Source: a virus. From it: 15,124 nucleotides of DNA. A program made the position numbers and the translations under genes. The stretch is taken from UHGV virus genome UHGV-0073333. One strand, given 5' to 3'. Below the pieces are notes generated by a model. The model was not told the origin of the DNA. It saw nothing but the letters and a program-made list of their open reading frames with translations, and ran no database searches. Below are positions 5,935 through 14,814 of the stretch, in pieces (within the stretch, counting starts at the first letter, position 1; every line of letters begins with the position of its first letter).

Positions 5935-6396
5935 ATGGAACTAAAATTTATTGATAACCCTGTGCGATTACAGGCCTTTCTTAACGAGCCAGGCAATACC
6001 GAAAATATTGTTGAGCCGGGGCACACGTACTACATCAAGCCTGATGCGGTATATCTCGGCATCTACGAAGGATTAGTGCTGGCTGGCGTTCATGAAGTGC
6101 GTAACTTCTGGCATAGCGTTGTTGAATGCCATGCGGTGTACGACCCCGGATTCCGTGGTGAATATGCACTGCAAGGGCATCGATTATTCTGCAAATGGCT
6201 TCTCGAAAACTCACCATTCCTTAACAGCATTACCATGGTTCCTGACACCACCAAATACGGACGGGCAATTATCCGTTTGCTTGGCGCTACCCGTGTTGGT
6301 CACCTTGATGATGCTTATATCAGATGTGGTAAACCCGTCGGCGTAACGCTTTATCAGTTAACTCGGCAACAATATAAGGAATTCAGCGAATGTTAA
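5935..6396 (+). CDS. Hypothetical protein (153 aa); occupies the gp14 position of a P22-type ejection cassette
   Basis: ORF track; starts 16 nt after the upstream stop; its stop overlaps the next start (ATGTTAA). Confidence 0.7.
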   Translation: MELKFIDNPVRLQAFLNEPGNTENIVEPGHTYYIKPDAVYLGIYEGLVLAGVHEVRNFWHSVVECHAVYDPGFRGEYALQGHRLFCKWLLENSPFLNSITMVPDTTKYGRAIIRLLGATRVGHLDDAYIRCGKPVGVTLYQLTRQQYKEFSEC

Positions 6397-7043
6397 TTAC
6401 CCACATAGCTCATAAACATCTCAATCGTGCCGTATACGAAAAAGGCGGTGATGGTGGTGCCTCTAAAGCTCAGGCGAAGGCCCAGCAGCAGGCAATTGAT
6501 TTGCAGCGCGAGCAGTGGAATACGGTGATGAATAATCTCAAGCCGTATGCAGAAGTCGGATTGCCTGCTTTACAACAACTACAAGGACTGATGACTCTGG
6601 AAGGGCAGAATAAAGCCGCGAATGATTTCTTTGGTTCTGGTTTATATAAAACACAGGCAGATCAGGCCCGTTATCAGAACCTTGTCTCAGCAGAAGCTAC
6701 CGGGGGGCTTGGCTCAACAGCTACCAGTAACCAGTTATCTTCCATTGCGCCCATGCTTTATAACAATTGGCTTAGTGGGCAAATGCAAAATTATGGAAAC
6801 CTGCTAAATGTCGGGATGAATGCGGCATCAGGGCAGGCAACAGCAGGGCAACTCTTGCAGGGGCTTGGCGCTATTCGTGCAGGTCAGGCGCAGCAGCCAT
6901 CCAGTCTTGCGCGTGGTATTGGTGGGGCGGCATCAGGCGCTTTAGCGGGTGCGCAACTTGGTTCCGTTGTTCCGGGTATAGGTAATGTCGCCGGGGCTAT
7001 TGGTGGTGGGCTTATTGGTCTTGTTGGGGGGCTTGGATTCTAA
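6390..7043 (+). CDS. Gly/Gln-rich protein (217 aa) with a glycine-zipper hydrophobic C-terminus; ejection-protein-like (gp7-like by position and size)
   Basis: ORF track; C-terminal GGLIGLVGGLGF; TAATG overlap with the next gene. Confidence 0.7.
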   Translation: MLITHIAHKHLNRAVYEKGGDGGASKAQAKAQQQAIDLQREQWNTVMNNLKPYAEVGLPALQQLQGLMTLEGQNKAANDFFGSGLYKTQADQARYQNLVSAEATGGLGSTATSNQLSSIAPMLYNNWLSGQMQNYGNLLNVGMNAASGQATAGQLLQGLGAIRAGQAQQPSSLARGIGGAASGALAGAQLGSVVPGIGNVAGAIGGGLIGLVGGLGF

Positions 7044-8464
7044 TGGCGACATGGCAACTTGGCGGGCTGCCTAGCATGGCACCGCAAAATGATAATGCTC
7101 CTCGTTCTTCCGTTCCTCAGCCTGTGCAGTATCAGCAGCAGCCAAACGTAGGTTTAATGGCGCTACAGGGGCTAAGAGGCGTTGCTGAGATTAATCAGCA
7201 GGCACGTCAACAACAGCGTAAAGCAGAGTTTCAGAAAGCATATGCCGGGGCTTTTGAGTCTGGAGACAGAAACAAAATGCGCAGTCTTATTTCTGAGTAT
7301 CCAGAAGAATTTGAAAGCGTTCAGAAAGGGATGGGCTTTATTGATGACGACCAGAGAAATTCTATTGGTCATCTTGCGACTAGTGCTCAAATCGCATCTT
7401 CGCTCGGAACTGGGGCATTTGGAAAATTCATAGCAGATAACGAAGATGAAATGCGTCGCTTGGGAATTTCTCCTGAGTCTGTTGCCGAAATGCATGTTAA
7501 TGATCCACAGGGATTCCAGCGGCTTGCTGGTAGTATGGCACTGTTTTCTCTCGGTCATGAGAAGTATTTCGATATCAAAGATCAAATGGAAGGTCGGGAT
7601 ATTGAGCGTGGCAAGTTGGCAGAAACAATCCGCAGCAATCAGGCTGGCGAAGCACTTCAGGCGAGAGGGCAGGATATTAGCCGAGCAAATGCGTTAACGT
7701 CAGCATATGCACCAACAGCAGCAATGCAGAATTACAATCAGTACGCTCAAATGTTAAAGGCGGATCCAGAGGGGGCGGCGGCATTTGCGGCAGCGGCTGG
7801 AATTAATACAAACGCCAAAAAATTAATGAGTGTTAGAGAAAACGATGATGGCACTGTCACAAAATACTACACAGACGGAAGTGAAGAGCAGGGAAAACTA
7901 AACCAGCCAATATCTGGAGATGGGTTTCGTCCAATAGCTTTGCCAACAGCCCAAAAGATCATGGAAAAGTCGCCAGAAGGGGCTAAAAAAGCTGCTGGAT
8001 TTGCATACAGGGTTAGGGATGCTCTTGATTCAATAGATACACTGAAAGACCAGCTTAGCCCACAGCGAGTGGCGATCATTAATAATGCTTTGGGTAATGG
8101 GACGCTGGCTAACTTAACGCTCAGCCCAATAGAGCAGCAATACGTTGTTAATGCTAATGACGCAATAATGGCAATACTCCGTCAGGAAACAGGGGCATCT
8201 ATCCTACCAGCTGAAATGTCCAAATATTATCAAATGTATTTCCCTCAGCCTGGTGATTCCACAAAAACCATTGATACCAAGCGCCGGAAGATGGAAAACC
8301 AGTTCAATTCGCTGAAAGCTGCTTCTGGTCGAGCTTATGATGCTTTGCGGGTTATTTCAGCAGTTGACAGAGGAACTTCTTCTTCGTCGCAGACATTGCC
8401 GCAATCTGAGCAGGTATCACAGCCAGCAGCCAGCAGTAATTTTTCTTCACTATGGGGTGATTAA
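7043..8464 (+). CDS. Low-complexity Gln/Ala-rich protein (473 aa); ejection/internal virion protein-like (gp20-like by position and size)
   Basis: ORF track; translationally coupled on both sides; no enzymatic motifs seen. Confidence 0.78.
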   Translation: MATWQLGGLPSMAPQNDNAPRSSVPQPVQYQQQPNVGLMALQGLRGVAEINQQARQQQRKAEFQKAYAGAFESGDRNKMRSLISEYPEEFESVQKGMGFIDDDQRNSIGHLATSAQIASSLGTGAFGKFIADNEDEMRRLGISPESVAEMHVNDPQGFQRLAGSMALFSLGHEKYFDIKDQMEGRDIERGKLAETIRSNQAGEALQARGQDISRANALTSAYAPTAAMQNYNQYAQMLKADPEGAAAFAAAAGINTNAKKLMSVRENDDGTVTKYYTDGSEEQGKLNQPISGDGFRPIALPTAQKIMEKSPEGAKKAAGFAYRVRDALDSIDTLKDQLSPQRVAIINNALGNGTLANLTLSPIEQQYVVNANDAIMAILRQETGASILPAEMSKYYQMYFPQPGDSTKTIDTKRRKMENQFNSLKAASGRAYDALRVISAVDRGTSSSSQTLPQSEQVSQPAASSNFSSLWGD

Positions 8465-10143
8465 TGGCTAAAGCATGGAAAGATGTTATCGCTTCTCCAC
8501 AGTATCAGGCGTTAGCACCAGAACAAAAAGCGCAGGCTCAAGAGCAATACTTCAATGAAGTCGTGGCCCCGCAAGCCGGAGAAAGTGTAGAGCAGGCTAA
8601 GCAGGCTTTTTATGCTGCCTATCCACTACCATCAACGAATGAAATAGACCGATCCCAATCAGCAACTCAAAATATTCAACATACATCATCTGATAATTCT
8701 CTTGCGTCAGGGTATGCAAAGTTAGCTACTCAGCAAAGAGAGGGGCTTGAGCGTTCAGCAGAACAGGGAGCCAGTCTTGGGGCTGCGATGCGCGATGCTA
8801 TAACAGGCGAAAGCCGAATGACTCCAGAGATGGAGAGACTGCAAAATGTCGCCTCTGCCCCAGAATTGAACTCACTAAGCATGGATGCCCTAAAGGCTGG
8901 ATGGTCTCAACTTTTCGGCTCTGACGCGTCTCAGGAAAAGATTCTTCAGGGAATGGGGGCGACATTAAGGCAGGATGAGAAGGGGAATACTATCGTTTCT
9001 CTGCCATCAGGTGATTATGCCCTGAACAAGCCGGGTTTATCACCGCAAGACCTGACTTCGTTTCTTGCTAATGCGTTGGCGTTTACACCAGCGGGCAGGG
9101 CTGGAACGGTGCTTGGTGCCATAGGAAAATCAGCAGCTACAGATTTAGCACTACAGGGAGCCACCAGCCTTGCTGGTGGAGAAGATATTGATCCGTTACA
9201 AACGGTAATTTCTGCTGGCATTGGTGGTATTGGTAAGGGGCTGGAAAATACAGCGAGTGCGGTTTCGAGGGCTGTTCGTGGTGATATGTCGCCTGAAGCA
9301 AAGGCTGCTGTCGACTTTGCATCGGAAAGAAATCTGCCGTTAATGACCAGTGACATGCTGAAAGATAAAACCTTTATGCAGAGTCAGGCTCAGACATTAG
9401 GCGAAAGAGTTCCTTTTTTTGGAACCGGTAAGAATCGGCTGAATCAACAACAAGCACGAGAAAATTTAGTCAGAACATTTAGCGATGGTCTGGGTGGCAT
9501 TTCTGATAAACAGCTTTATGAATCTGCGACTAAAGGGCAACAAAAATTCATTGAGGCAGCAGGAAAGCGATATAACCGCATAATTGACGCTATGGGGGAT
9601 ACCCCTGTCGATCTCTCAAACACGGTAAAAGCTATCGACAATCAGATTGCCGTGTTAAGCCGCCCGGGCAAATCTCAGGATAGAGCCGCGGTAAAAGTCT
9701 TGCAGCAATTTAAAGACGATATCACCAGCGGACCAAATGACCTGCGTCTGGCGAGGGAAAACAGAACCGATCTTCGAAAGCGATTTATGGCGTCATCTGA
9801 CACTGTTGATAAAGATACGCTCCAGAAAGCCAGCGATATTATCTACAAGGCATATACGGCGGATATGAAAAAAGCCGTAGCCAAAAATCTTGGAGCAGAC
9901 GAAGCCATTAATATGGCAAGGGTTGATCGCTCATGGTCTAAATTCAATGACATGATGGGAAGAACGCGCGTTCAAAAGGCAATAGCCAGCGGCAAGGCCA
10001 CGCCTGAGGATGTAACAAAACTCGTTTTTAGCCAAAGCCCATCAGAACGTTCTCAGCTTTACAGGCTTCTGGGTGACAATGGTAGGGAAAAAGCACCAGC
10101 AGCCATAGCTGCTGCGTTAGGCAAAACGCACGAGCGGCCATAG
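8464..10143 (+). CDS. Low-complexity Ala/Gln-rich protein (559 aa); ejection/internal virion protein-like (gp16-like by position)
   Basis: ORF track; ATG 8464 overlaps upstream stop (TAATG), GGGGTG Shine-Dalgarno-like sequence at 8451-8456. Confidence 0.78.
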   Translation: MAKAWKDVIASPQYQALAPEQKAQAQEQYFNEVVAPQAGESVEQAKQAFYAAYPLPSTNEIDRSQSATQNIQHTSSDNSLASGYAKLATQQREGLERSAEQGASLGAAMRDAITGESRMTPEMERLQNVASAPELNSLSMDALKAGWSQLFGSDASQEKILQGMGATLRQDEKGNTIVSLPSGDYALNKPGLSPQDLTSFLANALAFTPAGRAGTVLGAIGKSAATDLALQGATSLAGGEDIDPLQTVISAGIGGIGKGLENTASAVSRAVRGDMSPEAKAAVDFASERNLPLMTSDMLKDKTFMQSQAQTLGERVPFFGTGKNRLNQQQARENLVRTFSDGLGGISDKQLYESATKGQQKFIEAAGKRYNRIIDAMGDTPVDLSNTVKAIDNQIAVLSRPGKSQDRAAVKVLQQFKDDITSGPNDLRLARENRTDLRKRFMASSDTVDKDTLQKASDIIYKAYTADMKKAVAKNLGADEAINMARVDRSWSKFNDMMGRTRVQKAIASGKATPEDVTKLVFSQSPSERSQLYRLLGDNGREKAPAAIAAALGKTHERP

Positions 10144-10604
10144 TTCAGAATGCTGTAGATAAGGCGACTGATCCGTCTGGAAATATCAGTGTTGAGAAGT
10201 TTATTAATGCGTTACACCGGAACAGGAAGCAATCAGCAACTTTCTTTAAAGGCGTACATGGAAAGGAACTGGACGGCGTTATTAAATACCTCAACGATAC
10301 AAGACACGCGGCAAAAGCGAACGTTCAAAACTTAAATGGTCAGCAGCTTTATGGATTGTTAGTTGGTGGTGGCATCATAAACGCAGCAGTATTAGCGGGG
10401 ATGCTAAAAACGGCTGCGTTTGTTGTTCCTGCTGCTGGTGCCGTAGGCGGAGCAGCGAAGGCATACGAAAGCCCTGTTATACGAAATGCCTTGTTACGTC
10501 TGGCAAATACGCCAAAAGGTAGCACAGCATATGACAGAGCGATCAGTACGGTCACACAATCGCTCACCAGAGTCGCACAGGCATCACAAAAAGAAGCTCA
10601 ATAA
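10086..10604 (+). other. Open frame of 172 codons with no canonical start, overlapping the 3' end of the 559-aa gene; probable frameshifted C-terminal extension or frameshift-disrupted gene
   Basis: Stop-free from 10086 to TAA 10602-10604; first ATG/GTG/TTG only at 10356; operon terminator sits after 10604, not after 10143; encodes a Gly/Ala-rich hydrophobic segment. Confidence 0.45.
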
Positions 10605-10606
10605 CT

Positions 10607-10631
10607 GGTTAGCCACGGATGGCTAATTTTT
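10607..10631 (+). terminator. Rho-independent terminator of the plus-strand cargo operon
   Basis: Stem TTAGCCA (10609-10615) / TGGCTAA (10620-10626), loop CGGA, then TTTTT at 10627-10631. Confidence 0.55.
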
Positions 10632-11042
10632 GTTCTTTGCTCTCATCCACAGGTAAAGAAGGGCAAGAACAAGACAAAAAACAGAGAATAGATAACCTAC
10701 CTCATATGATGCGCCAAAAAAATTAGCTATTGATACGGGCAAAAAAGCTGAAGCGATCAAAATTGAAAGGCAAAAAATAAGACCAGTAATATAGTTTATT
10801 AAATTCTTAAATGAGAAACGTTTTGCTTGATTTATGGTCTTAGCGAACGATCGCTTAACGACGGATAAAAGCAAATAGATGGCGACAGTTGCTAATGCCC
10901 CTTTCCACCAGTCTGGATATAGTTTTGCGACAATCAGACCAAGGAAAACCATGATGACAGCCTGAGCATTCACACCAACCCTCCCTTTAGCGTTGTTTAG
11001 ATTGGCAATCATCATATATCCAAGACATGGCATTTGGTACAT
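10623..11042 (-). CDS. Small inner-membrane protein (about 139 aa, about 4 hydrophobic helices); start uncertain
   Basis: ORF track 10623..11210 begins at a TTG; first ATG is at 11042; strongly hydrophobic; AT-rich; no clear Shine-Dalgarno sequence. Confidence 0.5.
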   Translation of the reverse strand: MYQMPCLGYMMIANLNNAKGRVGVNAQAVIMVFLGLIVAKLYPDWWKGALATVAIYLLLSVVKRSFAKTINQAKRFSFKNLINYITGLIFCLSILIASAFLPVSIANFFGASYEVGYLFSVFCLVLALLYLWMRAKNKN

Positions 11043-11804: not shown

Positions 11805-12242
11805 TCATATGTAACTTATTATTTTAGATAAAGATTTCCAGTTAAAGAAAAAAGTTATCATTGATATAATCAAATATGCCCCTGCGAGTAGCAGGGCATA
11901 ATAATCCAGAGGCAGATTGCTGACAACAGGGGCAAACATCGAGATCATTGCTAATAGGCAGGCTGTGATCAGCGTAGTTCCTGTATCAAAAAGCCCCTCA
12001 ATAATGCCTTTTAGTACTCCGTTACTTTTTAGAGCGCCTACAATTCCCTTTGAACTATCAAAGCTACTTAGCATGGTGACTGATGCCAAAACAAAACCAA
12101 AGAGAACTCCAGAAATAGTTGAAAGAGCACCAGCAGCCGAAATGACAGCATTGTGATCTAGGTCGTGTAAAAAATGGGCACCAGCAATAGCCATAGCTAG
12201 AGCAAACAATGACTTGGCAGCAAACAATTTCCGAGAACTCAT
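11805..12242 (-). CDS. Small membrane protein (145 aa, 3-4 hydrophobic helices); second gene of the two-gene cargo operon
   Basis: ORF track; ATG with AGGA 7 nt upstream, 12 nt after the stop of the 361-aa gene; AT-rich. Confidence 0.75.
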   Translation of the reverse strand: MSSRKLFAAKSLFALAMAIAGAHFLHDLDHNAVISAAGALSTISGVLFGFVLASVTMLSSFDSSKGIVGALKSNGVLKGIIEGLFDTGTTLITACLLAMISMFAPVVSNLPLDYYALLLAGAYLIISMITFFFNWKSLSKIISYI

Positions 12243-14413: not shown

Positions 14414-14814
14414 TCATCGTGCAAATTTGCACTCTGCCAGCCAACGCAATTTCTCGTTGGCGGAAATATCAGGTATTTACTGAACGAACGGTCTACCCGC
14501 CTGTTCAACTACCAGTTGTACATGGCTGCTTTATGTGCAAATGGTGGTGAGAGAAAATTGTTTGGGGGTACTTTTGGGGGTATCTCCAAAGATGTAATGG
14601 GGAAATGTCTTTATATATCAATGTATTTTTATTGTTTGTTTTGTTCCTATTATCGCACCATTCTAACGTCTCCCCAAGTCTACTCAAGTATTTAAAAACC
14701 TCTTATAATCAGTATATTAATGCCCCTTTTAGTCTTTTGACGTCTATTTAAGTACCCCAAACTCTACAAGCAATTGAGGGGATTTGCTGTTCAGTTTAGT
14801 GGAGATACCCCCAA

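Follow-up and report, generated by a model that had tools for sequence, protein, structure and literature searches.

A 172-codon frame without a start codon behind a gp16-family gene is best explained as the severed end of that gene

The window (the whole 15,124-nt stretch of DNA analysed here) carries a 559-codon open reading frame (ORF) opened by the ATG at 8464 and, in the −1 frame relative to it, a run of 172 sense codons without a start codon at its head, which raises the question of whether the second frame is joined to the first by recoding, is a gene in its own right, or is a displaced part of the first. The −1 frame starts at 10086, immediately 3' of a TAG (10083–10085), ends with the TAA at 10602–10604 and overlaps the 559-codon gene by 58 nt. 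The only start codons (ATG, GTG or TTG) in it are TTG 10356, ATG 10401, and TTG 10491, and no convincing Shine-Dalgarno sequence was found 5' of any of these three. It ranks sixth in length among the open stretches of the + strand of the window, and it is free of stops only because it coded for protein until a very short time ago, if it does not do so to this day. Its openness by chance has a probability of ca. 6e-5 at the local base composition (0 of 20,000 shuffles were stop-free), in keeping with the original prediction, which had put it below 0.1%. The layout described there was likewise reproduced: the 559-aa gene ends at TAG 10141–10143, no stop interrupts the −1 frame between 10086 and 10604 and its first start is at 10356, an A5 run lies at 10088–10092, and a terminator-like hairpin with a T-run (10607–10628) follows the second frame and not position 10143. 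The Gly/Ala-rich hydrophobic stretch noticed in the extension was recovered as well, with Kyte-Doolittle 19-residue means peaking at 1.6–1.8 in 10347–10457 and exceeding 1.6 at residues 617–649 of the full-length protein.

The answer is provided by the orthologs, the comparison with which had been proposed together with the prediction and reveals one continuous protein of 701 aa. Over 15 kb the window and the E. coli 83972 sequence agree at 99.8% identity, and all the differences between them are a 35-bp block, a single-nucleotide polymorphism (SNP) at 10073, three further SNPs, and two small indels elsewhere. The 35 bp are absent from E. coli ABU 83972, 83972, EcPF14, EC36, and CFSAN061761; the 701-aa ORF is continuous in all five E. 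coli loci checked directly and is annotated in RefSeq as one CDS in CFSAN061761 (WP_001585370.1). Removal of 10083–10117 in silico yields a single 701-aa ORF with one residue unlike that of E. coli 83972/ABU 83972. The preferred explanation, to which we assign a probability of about 0.93, is that 8464–10143 and 10086–10604 are two pieces of one 701-aa gene split by the 35-bp insertion, with no recoding involved (Table 1). The supposition of a once-continuous longer gene was therefore correct, while the original length of about 710 aa was not. The region 10086–10143 had been singled out as the only place where the frames could be joined, and the lesion maps within exactly this overlap; a mutational frameshift or an indel error had been named as the alternatives to a programmed shift, and this is what was found, in the form of a 35-bp insertion and not of a 1-nt slip at A5. 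Orthologs stopping at the same position and followed by a separate downstream gene, a pattern which had been set against a once-continuous gene, were not seen.

Table 1. Coordinates of the features of the locus in the window
Feature	Position	Strand	Description and basis
Upstream genes of the ejection-protein operon	5935–8464	+	starts and stops overlap; Pfam
DUF2824 protein	5935–6396	+	Pfam DUF2824, E 1.5e-61
gp7-like protein	6390–7043	+	Pfam P22_gp7, E 1.4e-63
gp20-like protein	7043–8464	+	Pfam Inj_translocase, E 4.5e-58; directly 5' of the gp16-family gene
N-terminal piece of the gp16-family ejection protein	8464–10143	+	559 codons and TAG; PHROG 770 profile, protein alignment
Single-base change	10073		G for A, Gly537 for Asp; 10 nt 5' of the insertion
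Frame-shifting insertion	10083–10117		35 bp, TAGGGAAAAAGCACCAGCAGCCATAGCTGCTGCGT; absent from E. coli relatives
Native C-terminal piece of the same gene	10118–10604	+	161 codons (RQNARAAIVQNAV...QKEAQ) and TAA, now in the −1 frame
Gly/Ala-rich hydrophobic segment	10347–10457	+	LYGLLVGGGIINAAVLAGMLKTAAFVVPAAGAVGGAA; residues ~617–653 of the 701-aa protein; hydropathy
Terminator-like hairpin	10607–10638	+	GGTTAGCCA-CGGA-TGGCTAATT, then a T-run; 3 nt past the true stop of the gene

In the pairwise alignment the insertion, which sits inside the 58-nt overlap of the frames, appears as a clean 35-bp gap with TAGG at its flanks. The sequence of 10118–10143 is repeated in its first 26 nt at 85% identity (4 mismatches), and 9 unrelated bases follow. 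The lesion is an imperfect duplication with 9 extra bases; simple tandem duplication, slippage in a homopolymer, and IS insertion do not describe it. The A5 run was brought in by the insertion itself, which also holds a perfect 7-bp inverted repeat, CAGCAGC-CATA-GCTGCTG (10097–10114). The G at 10073 probably belongs to the same event, since just four single-base differences from 83972 are found in 15 kb outside the insertion. The junctions of the insertion are represented by the 31-mers GACAATGGTAGGGAAAAAGCACCAGCAGCCA and AGCTGCTGCGTTAGGCAAAACGCACGAGCGG.

The native part of the 559-codon ORF comprises residues 1–539, while its final 20 codons are non-native: 12 codons of the insertion (REKAPAAIAAAL), 7 native codons read out of frame (GKTHERP), and the stop. 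The first 11 codons of the −1 frame (10086–10118, GKSTSSHSCCV) represent out-of-frame translation of the insertion, and the translation of 10118–10604 is identical in alignment to residues 541–701 of the ortholog. By adding 2 mod 3 bases the insertion shifts the frame, and a ribosome would read the 12 foreign and 7 out-of-frame codons and halt at TAG 10141, leaving the native C-terminal 161 codons stranded in the −1 frame without a start. Among the stranded codons are those for the conserved motif GRxxxR, for the putative membrane segment with its hydrophobic residues, and for the conserved YES...RNALLRLANTPKGSTAYD tail, and the truncated product would presumably be non-functional in DNA delivery. 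Ordinary frameshift pseudogenes and assembly indels in prophage genes likewise leave a long start-less frame homologous to the parent gene.

Profile and alignment matches place the gene in the P22 gp16 family of DNA transfer/ejection proteins (PHROG 770). The ortholog covers positions 3–667 of 668 of the PHROG 770 'DNA transfer protein' profile (E 2.5e-163), and the two pieces in the window share it out, the 559-codon one matching positions 3–508 (E 2.9e-112) and residues 12–171 of the −1 frame positions 501–667 (E 2e-47). In tblastn searches residues 1–700 align in one piece with Sf6 gene 13, ST64T gene 16, and phage L, with an identity of 32–33% to Sf6 and ST64T, and residues 69–701 match ORF13 of phage N7 at 66% identity. 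These homologs are continuous ORFs of 668 (N7), 665 (Sf6), and 658 aa (ST64T), and protein alignment locates the junction motif GRQNARAAIV within a continuous ORF in all of these phages. The sequence searches of Pfam-A, NCBIfam, and PDB with the protein gave no match, and only a weak precomputed match to PF26808 is available. P22 gp16 itself is 609 aa long and its homologs in Sf6, CUS-3, and HK620 are 665–722 aa, and putative transmembrane helices are present at the C-terminus of all gp16-like homologs (PMC8954989). The gene studied here shares with this family the size class, the C-terminal hydrophobic segment, and a terminator directly after the gene. The segment at 10347–10457, a putative membrane-inserting region missing from the 559-aa product, aligns with a hydrophobic Gly-rich stretch of N7, Sf6, and ST64T. 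A single ORF of ~600–720 aa, characteristic of the family, is found in the five E. coli orthologs and is split in the window (559 and 172 codons), and the window therefore holds a disrupted gp16-family member.

The intact form is widespread. About 405 complete E. coli genomes span the site, none of them with the 35 bp (125–126 nt versus 161 nt in the window) and none matching the site at 99% or more. Of the 15 members listed for the protein cluster, 12 have a length of 701 aa, and each of these 701-aa sequences is met in exact form on hundreds of contigs, the two commonest on 603 and 251. Among ~15 billion proteins the 559-aa form is found on one contig only, the window itself, which is a metagenome contig (ENA ERZ1742085 NODE_1264) with a k-mer coverage of 3.25. 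Neither the insertion nor the 559-aa product was found elsewhere in 5,426 complete E. coli genomes, 185,579 species-representative genomes, IMG/VR, JGI metagenomes, or the protein collection just mentioned. A near-identity search of 9700–10700 against GenBank phages gave no match; the element is chromosomal and not a sequenced phage. Since the insertion is seen only in a low-coverage contig, the locus represents either a gene that has been broken or a fault of the assembly, not programmed frameshifting.

The split-gene explanation embraces two cases, which differ only in whether the lesion is biological. In the non-biological one the 35 bp do not exist in the organism, having come from a chimeric or fold-back read or from mis-assembly, and the 701-aa gene of the strain is intact. 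We regard this as a serious contender, at somewhat less than even odds. It is favoured by the very low coverage, by the uniqueness of the insertion and its product across all genome, metagenome, and protein collections searched, by the palindromic core at 10097–10114, which is of the kind that template switching yields, and by the crowding of five base changes into 29 nt (10073–10101) on an otherwise near-identical background. Against it, a de Bruijn path through the site requires reads holding the whole insertion together with both flanks, and a minority erroneous path would, judging from assembler behaviour, normally be collapsed to the better-covered allele. Moreover, genuine decay of this gene is frequent, as it is interrupted in other assemblies, independently, by IS66, IS1, and indels of 1–4 nt. 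On balance, the presence of the insertion in the DNA of the organism is mildly favoured.

No donor of the inserted sequence was found anywhere, and no simple duplication accounts for its origin. An exact 24-mer from the insert and a degenerate back-translation of GREKAPAAIAAA each gave 0 matches in the genome, viral, and metagenome contig collections, blastn against complete E. coli genomes returned the normal single copy only (31 nt, 3 mismatches), and phages and plasmids gave matches at chance level only. The search for a self-template within the window yielded only 9–13-mers resembling CAGCAGC/GCTGCTG, such as AGCACCAGCAGCC at 12126–12138 and reverse-complement 10–11-mers at 10380–10441, and self-templating was set aside, these being judged low-complexity coincidences. 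Mutagenesis of the DGR type was ruled out because the mismatches between the copies (C>G, C>A, G>C, G>A) are not adenine-specific. A protein search with an 80-aa query across the junction produced 3 fragments and no donor allele, its word index being ill-suited to short queries.

Recoding would take two forms. The first supposes a genuine and complex templated insertion in vivo, which by chance created an A_AAA slip site followed by a hairpin, where a few ribosomes shift to −1 and produce a gp16 of almost full length that carries 12 inserted residues. Spontaneous −1 slippage may occur at a low level at G_GAA_AAA, with the 7-bp hairpin 4 nt after A_AAA, and the island would then have a dosage-reduced, leaky ejection protein; the scenario as a whole is, nevertheless, improbable. 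Even less credit is due to the second form, a programmed −1 frameshift within 10086–10143 fusing the frames into a ~712-aa protein made beside the 559-aa product. Programmed −1 frameshifts occur in phage structural genes, e.g., in lambda G/G-T at G_GGA_AAG, and the present locus shares with that case a pair of frames that overlap within an operon of late genes, as well as a string, GGGAAAAAG, similar to the lambda site. The 58-nt overlap would accommodate such a shift; the zero-frame A-site codon AAA (10090–10092) is preceded by A, which makes single-tRNA −1 slippage possible, and the 7-bp GC-rich hairpin (10097–10114) begins 4 nt past this codon. Unlike in lambda, however, the GGA_AAA codons here lie in the target frame and not in the zero frame, and the site lacks conservation. 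Enumeration of the zero-frame positions in 10075–10138 revealed X_XXY_YYZ in register at none of them, as had been noted before, the sole partial match being the A-site tetranucleotide A_AAA at G_GAA_AAA. For the hairpin region (10084–10150) the predicted fold is −18.7 kcal/mol with z −1.48, and 14 of 200 shuffles are equally good. The entire candidate signal lies within an insertion private to this contig, the fused product would gain 10–11 nonsense residues (STSSHSCCV) beside a duplicated and damaged conserved motif, and the orthologs and phage homologs examined are all single ORFs, none of the gp16 homologs in these genomes being made by frameshifting. Programmed frameshifting, left as unproven by the original prediction, is thus unsupported, because both a slippery heptamer in register and conservation are absent.

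It is equally hard to credit that the second frame is a separate gene for a membrane peptide, either of 82 aa (TTG 10356) or of 67 aa (ATG 10401). Gene callers do report the 67-aa ORF here and on 17 other contigs, but in every such contig examined the call comes after a break in the upstream gene or after the edge of the contig. In intact genomes the region lies within the 701-aa CDS, neither start is preceded by a good Shine-Dalgarno sequence, and gp16 homology begins at the 12th codon of the frame, 79 codons upstream of TTG 10356.

Both the phage gene family, a well-known one, and the type of island have been described before, and a lesion private to one contig, or a mistake of assembly, carries little biological weight. 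The practical value is for annotation: the 559-aa and 67-aa products called on this contig are best joined and marked as a single disrupted gene of the gp16 family, and a long frame without a start in a metagenome contig of low coverage calls for a comparison with isolate genomes before recoding is invoked.

Of greater biological interest is the context. The gp16-family gene is the last of a DUF2824/gp7/gp20/gp16 operon, an order common in P22-like podoviruses, with which N7, Sf6, and ST64T agree; unlike in those phages, the gene sits here in a satellite-type island without capsid, portal, or tail genes. Judged by gene content and order, the locus belongs to the type of EcCIMP1, a phage-inducible chromosomal island in E. 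coli MP1, which the P22-like phage Kapi1 mobilises (PMC11773190). Such a helper-dependent island carries its own gp7/gp20/gp16 set and no capsid genes, a combination noted in the literature without a functional explanation. The order common to EcCIMP1 comprises an Icd-like gene, small hypothetical genes, a TOPRIM/DUF927 primase, DUF2824, gp7-like and gp20-like genes, and the gene at the gp16 position, and a variable region and PerC come next, with the MarR-Vat island beyond them, as in the 83972 locus. MP1 was compared with this locus, which stands for the window at 99.8% identity, and the two strains share six identical RefSeq proteins (WP_001208877.1, WP_001058743.1, WP_000181940.1, WP_001024679.1, WP_001065661.1, and WP_001304881.1). 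In the window itself the DUF927/Toprim primase and PerC are matched by Pfam, the downstream minus-strand genes gave nothing by PADLOC or Pfam, and the integrase/tRNA-Thr end of EcCIMP1 falls outside the 15-kb contig. The allele at the gp16 position in MP1 differs from the one described here, being 906 aa long and containing a lytic transglycosylase domain.

The gp16-family gene (P22 gp16 ejection or DNA transfer family) lies in the window in two pieces, and reading and translation of both frames bore out the layout of the original prediction: a 559-codon ORF, a stop-free frame at −1, an A5 run (10088-10092), and a terminator placed after the second frame. The second frame contains only three candidate starts, TTG 10356, ATG 10401, and TTG 10491, and no convincing ribosome-binding site was found before any of them. 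The chance of 172 stop-free codons at the local base composition is ca. 6e-5, and none of 20,000 shuffles was free of stops. The 559-aa product covers positions 3-508 of the 668 in PHROGs profile 770, "DNA transfer protein"; the match of the start-less frame begins at codon 12 of that frame and takes in positions 501-667, so that a single family profile is covered by the two frames in succession. Directly upstream lie genes for a DUF2824 protein and homologs of P22 gp7 and gp20 (E-values 1e-58 to 1e-63), in the same order as in the ejection-protein operon of P22-like phages, where gene 16 is the last, and as in phages N7, Sf6, and ST64T.

Coordinates of the features discussed (window positions unless a locus is named; L001, L002, L004, and L005 are complete-genome loci, L010 the E. 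coli MP1 locus, L011 and L018 contigs carrying the 67-aa fragment)
Feature	Position	Strand	Remark
N-terminal ORF	ATG 8464 to TAG 10141-10143	+	559 codons; translation of sequence
Start-less frame	10086 to TAA 10602-10604	+	one base behind the ORF; 172 sense codons; directly after TAG 10083-10085
Terminator-like hairpin and T-run	10607-10628	+	just past the end of the start-less frame
Minus-strand gene right after gp16	10623-11012	-	variable; 129-aa window form, no family match
204-aa variant of that gene	L011 1723-2337; L018 482-1096		weak SieA matches
906-aa allele at gp16 position	L010 12598-15318		lytic transglycosylase domain
Two minus-strand genes, 145 and 361 aa	11805-13340	-	PHROGs 8552 and 7651, function unknown
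PGAP pseudogene calls	L001 1765-3580; L002 8765-10580; L004 8931-10746; L005 8955-10770		RefSeq/PGAP annotation

Over its full length the window matches the chromosome of E. coli 83972 and its relatives at 99.8% identity. A base-by-base comparison with 83972 over 15 kb revealed SNPs at 1931, 4104, and 14336 and one 16-bp indel (14653-14668) away from the lesion, and a cluster of differences at it, namely G for A at 10073 and 35 extra bases at 10083-10117 (TAGGGAAAAAGCACCAGCAGCCATAGCTGCTGCGT); the surrounding sequence hardly differs from the reference. As 35 equals 2 modulo 3, the block produces exactly the observed −1 displacement, and its in silico removal restores an ORF of 701 aa, one residue off the 83972 protein (G537D). 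Over its first 26 nt the block matches the 26 nt that come after it (10118-10143) at 85%, and nine extra bases after this diverged repeat complete it. At the protein level GREKAPAAIA, encoded by the insertion, aligns as a second, damaged version of the junction motif GR(Q/A)(N/Q)(A/M)R, which is internal to a continuous ORF in all the phages aligned. The block also contains a perfect 7-bp inverted repeat, CAGCAGC-CATA-GCTGCTG (10097-10114), which may be a trace of template switching; on the minus strand the same repeat, followed by a T5 run, is scored as terminator-like.

Among the alternatives originally proposed, the one that proved correct is an indel in a gene that used to be continuous: the orthologs have a single 701-aa ORF, and none of those examined has the same stop followed by a separate downstream gene. 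The ORF is unbroken in all five E. coli loci fetched, and in CFSAN061761 RefSeq gives it as one CDS, WP_001585370.1, of an intact 701 aa. The site is present in 405 of 5,426 complete genomes, where all the matches listed are 125-126 nt long vs. 161 in the window and none reaches at least 99% identity. In tblastn, residues 1-700 of the 701-aa protein align in one piece with Sf6 gene 13, ST64T gene 16, phage L, and others, and N7 ORF13 is 66% identical across residues 69-701. In several complete genomes PGAP calls the continuous ORF a pseudogene ("incomplete; missing C-terminus", 605 codons) despite its 701 continuous codons; these calls seem to stem from evidence-based annotation, with no real truncation behind them, and are inconsistent with the CFSAN061761 entry.

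The 559-aa product lacks the last 161 native residues, among them a hydrophobic Gly/Ala-rich segment (residues ca. 617-653, window 10347-10457, Kyte-Doolittle means up to 1.6-1.8) and a block at the C-terminus, YES...RNALLRLANTPKGSTAYD, that N7, Sf6, and ST64T also conserve. The literature supports a membrane role of the family: P22-type gp16 has been described as the inner-membrane component of a trans-envelope DNA conduit, and putative C-terminal transmembrane helices are reported for all gp16-like homologs (PMC8954989). DNA injection needs all three ejection proteins, and SieA-escape substitutions fall in the C-terminal part of P22 gp16 (PMC10461980). The truncated product would probably be non-functional.

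The lesion itself is private to the window, a public metagenome contig (ENA ERZ1742085 NODE_1264_length_15124_cov_3.25489). In a set of ca. 15 billion proteins no other contig carries the exact 559-aa product; the 701-aa forms of the same 90% cluster (2,417 members) are on hundreds of contigs. Neither a 24-mer from the insert nor a degenerate pattern for its peptide was found in 185,579 species-representative genomes, IMG/VR, or JGI metagenomes; with the insert as blastn query, complete E. coli genomes, GenBank phages, and PLSDB plasmids yielded nothing beyond the normal single copy or chance hits, and no template was identified within the window. The block may be a patch acquired from an unsampled allele by out-of-register recombination, a template-switch mutation, or a chimeric or fold-back read taken into the 3x assembly. 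We consider the lesion real with a probability of about 0.6; an artefact is somewhat less probable, and against it stands the independent breakage of the gene elsewhere, favouring real decay. A 67-aa C-terminal fragment (window 10401-10604) is called as a gene of its own on 18 contigs. An IS66 or IS1 element, small indels, and contig ends are among the causes there, and none of those contigs has the 35-bp block; L011 and L013-L020 are contigs of this kind, the gene being broken independently by IS66, IS1, or small indels, which suggests recurrent decay of the gp16-family gene in E. coli islands. A Logan fragment carries a different 1-nt frameshift reading into the same TAG as the 559-aa ORF.

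Of the two readings originally put forward, decay by an indel stood and a programmed −1 shift, now very improbable, did not: no X_XXY_YYZ heptamer occurs in the zero frame at any position of the overlap, whose sole slip feature, within G_GAA_AAA, is the A-site tetranucleotide A_AAA, and the whole candidate signal lies inside an insertion seen in no other genome; no conservation suggests a selected mechanism. A 7-bp hairpin lies 4 nt past A_AAA. The region is no more stably folded than its shuffles (z −1.48; 14 of 200 fold as well). Any shifted product would carry the nonsense residues STSSHSCCV. The GGA_AAA codons resembling the lambda G-T site fall in the target frame and not in the zero frame. 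Spontaneous slippage might occur at a trace level and would not be a designed feature.

The window element is not a prophage. It comprises, in order, genes for an Icd-like protein, small hypothetical genes, a TOPRIM/DUF927 primase, the ejection-protein module, a variable minus-strand region, and PerC, past which a MarR-Vat island adjoins. Order and content are those of EcCIMP1, a phage-inducible chromosomal island carried by E. coli MP1 and mobilised by the P22-like phage Kapi1; the paper on it already records that "DNA transfer" and DUF2824 genes follow the primase and that capsid and terminase genes are lacking (PMC11773190). MP1 and 83972 share six identical RefSeq proteins. At the gp16 position MP1 has a different allele, of 906 aa, which makes the final gene of the ejection module mosaic from island to island. 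What the window shows is either a broken copy of a known gene, in an island of known type, or an artefact of its assembly.

The whole contig (1-15124) has a complete P22-type ejection module (DUF2824, gp7, gp20, gp16) without capsid, portal, terminase, or tail genes. The EcCIMP1 paper offers no explanation of why a satellite has its own ejection proteins (PMC11773190); one possibility is that they match or evade SieA-type exclusion. The 204-aa variant of the gene next to gp16, found in some islands, weakly matches Pfam PF26849 and PHROG 7745, "superinfection exclusion SieA-like" (E 4e-4). On the P22 map, sieA follows gene 16. The 145- and 361-aa genes gave no PADLOC or Pfam match, and in other strains their slot holds an Abi-family or a pRiA4b ORF-3-family gene, which gives it the look of a hotspot for variable cargo or defence genes.

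Minor polymorphisms were also seen. Two small indels vary among the closest relatives. The 16 bases at 14653-14668 are missing from 83972, and at 6846, in the gp7-like gene, E. coli EcPF14 has 24 extra bases, giving 225 aa vs. 217. Position 1931, within a 113-aa gene (1724-2065), is T in 83972 and C in the window and EcPF14; the 83972 copy of this gene is annotated with an internal stop, and the window copy is intact.
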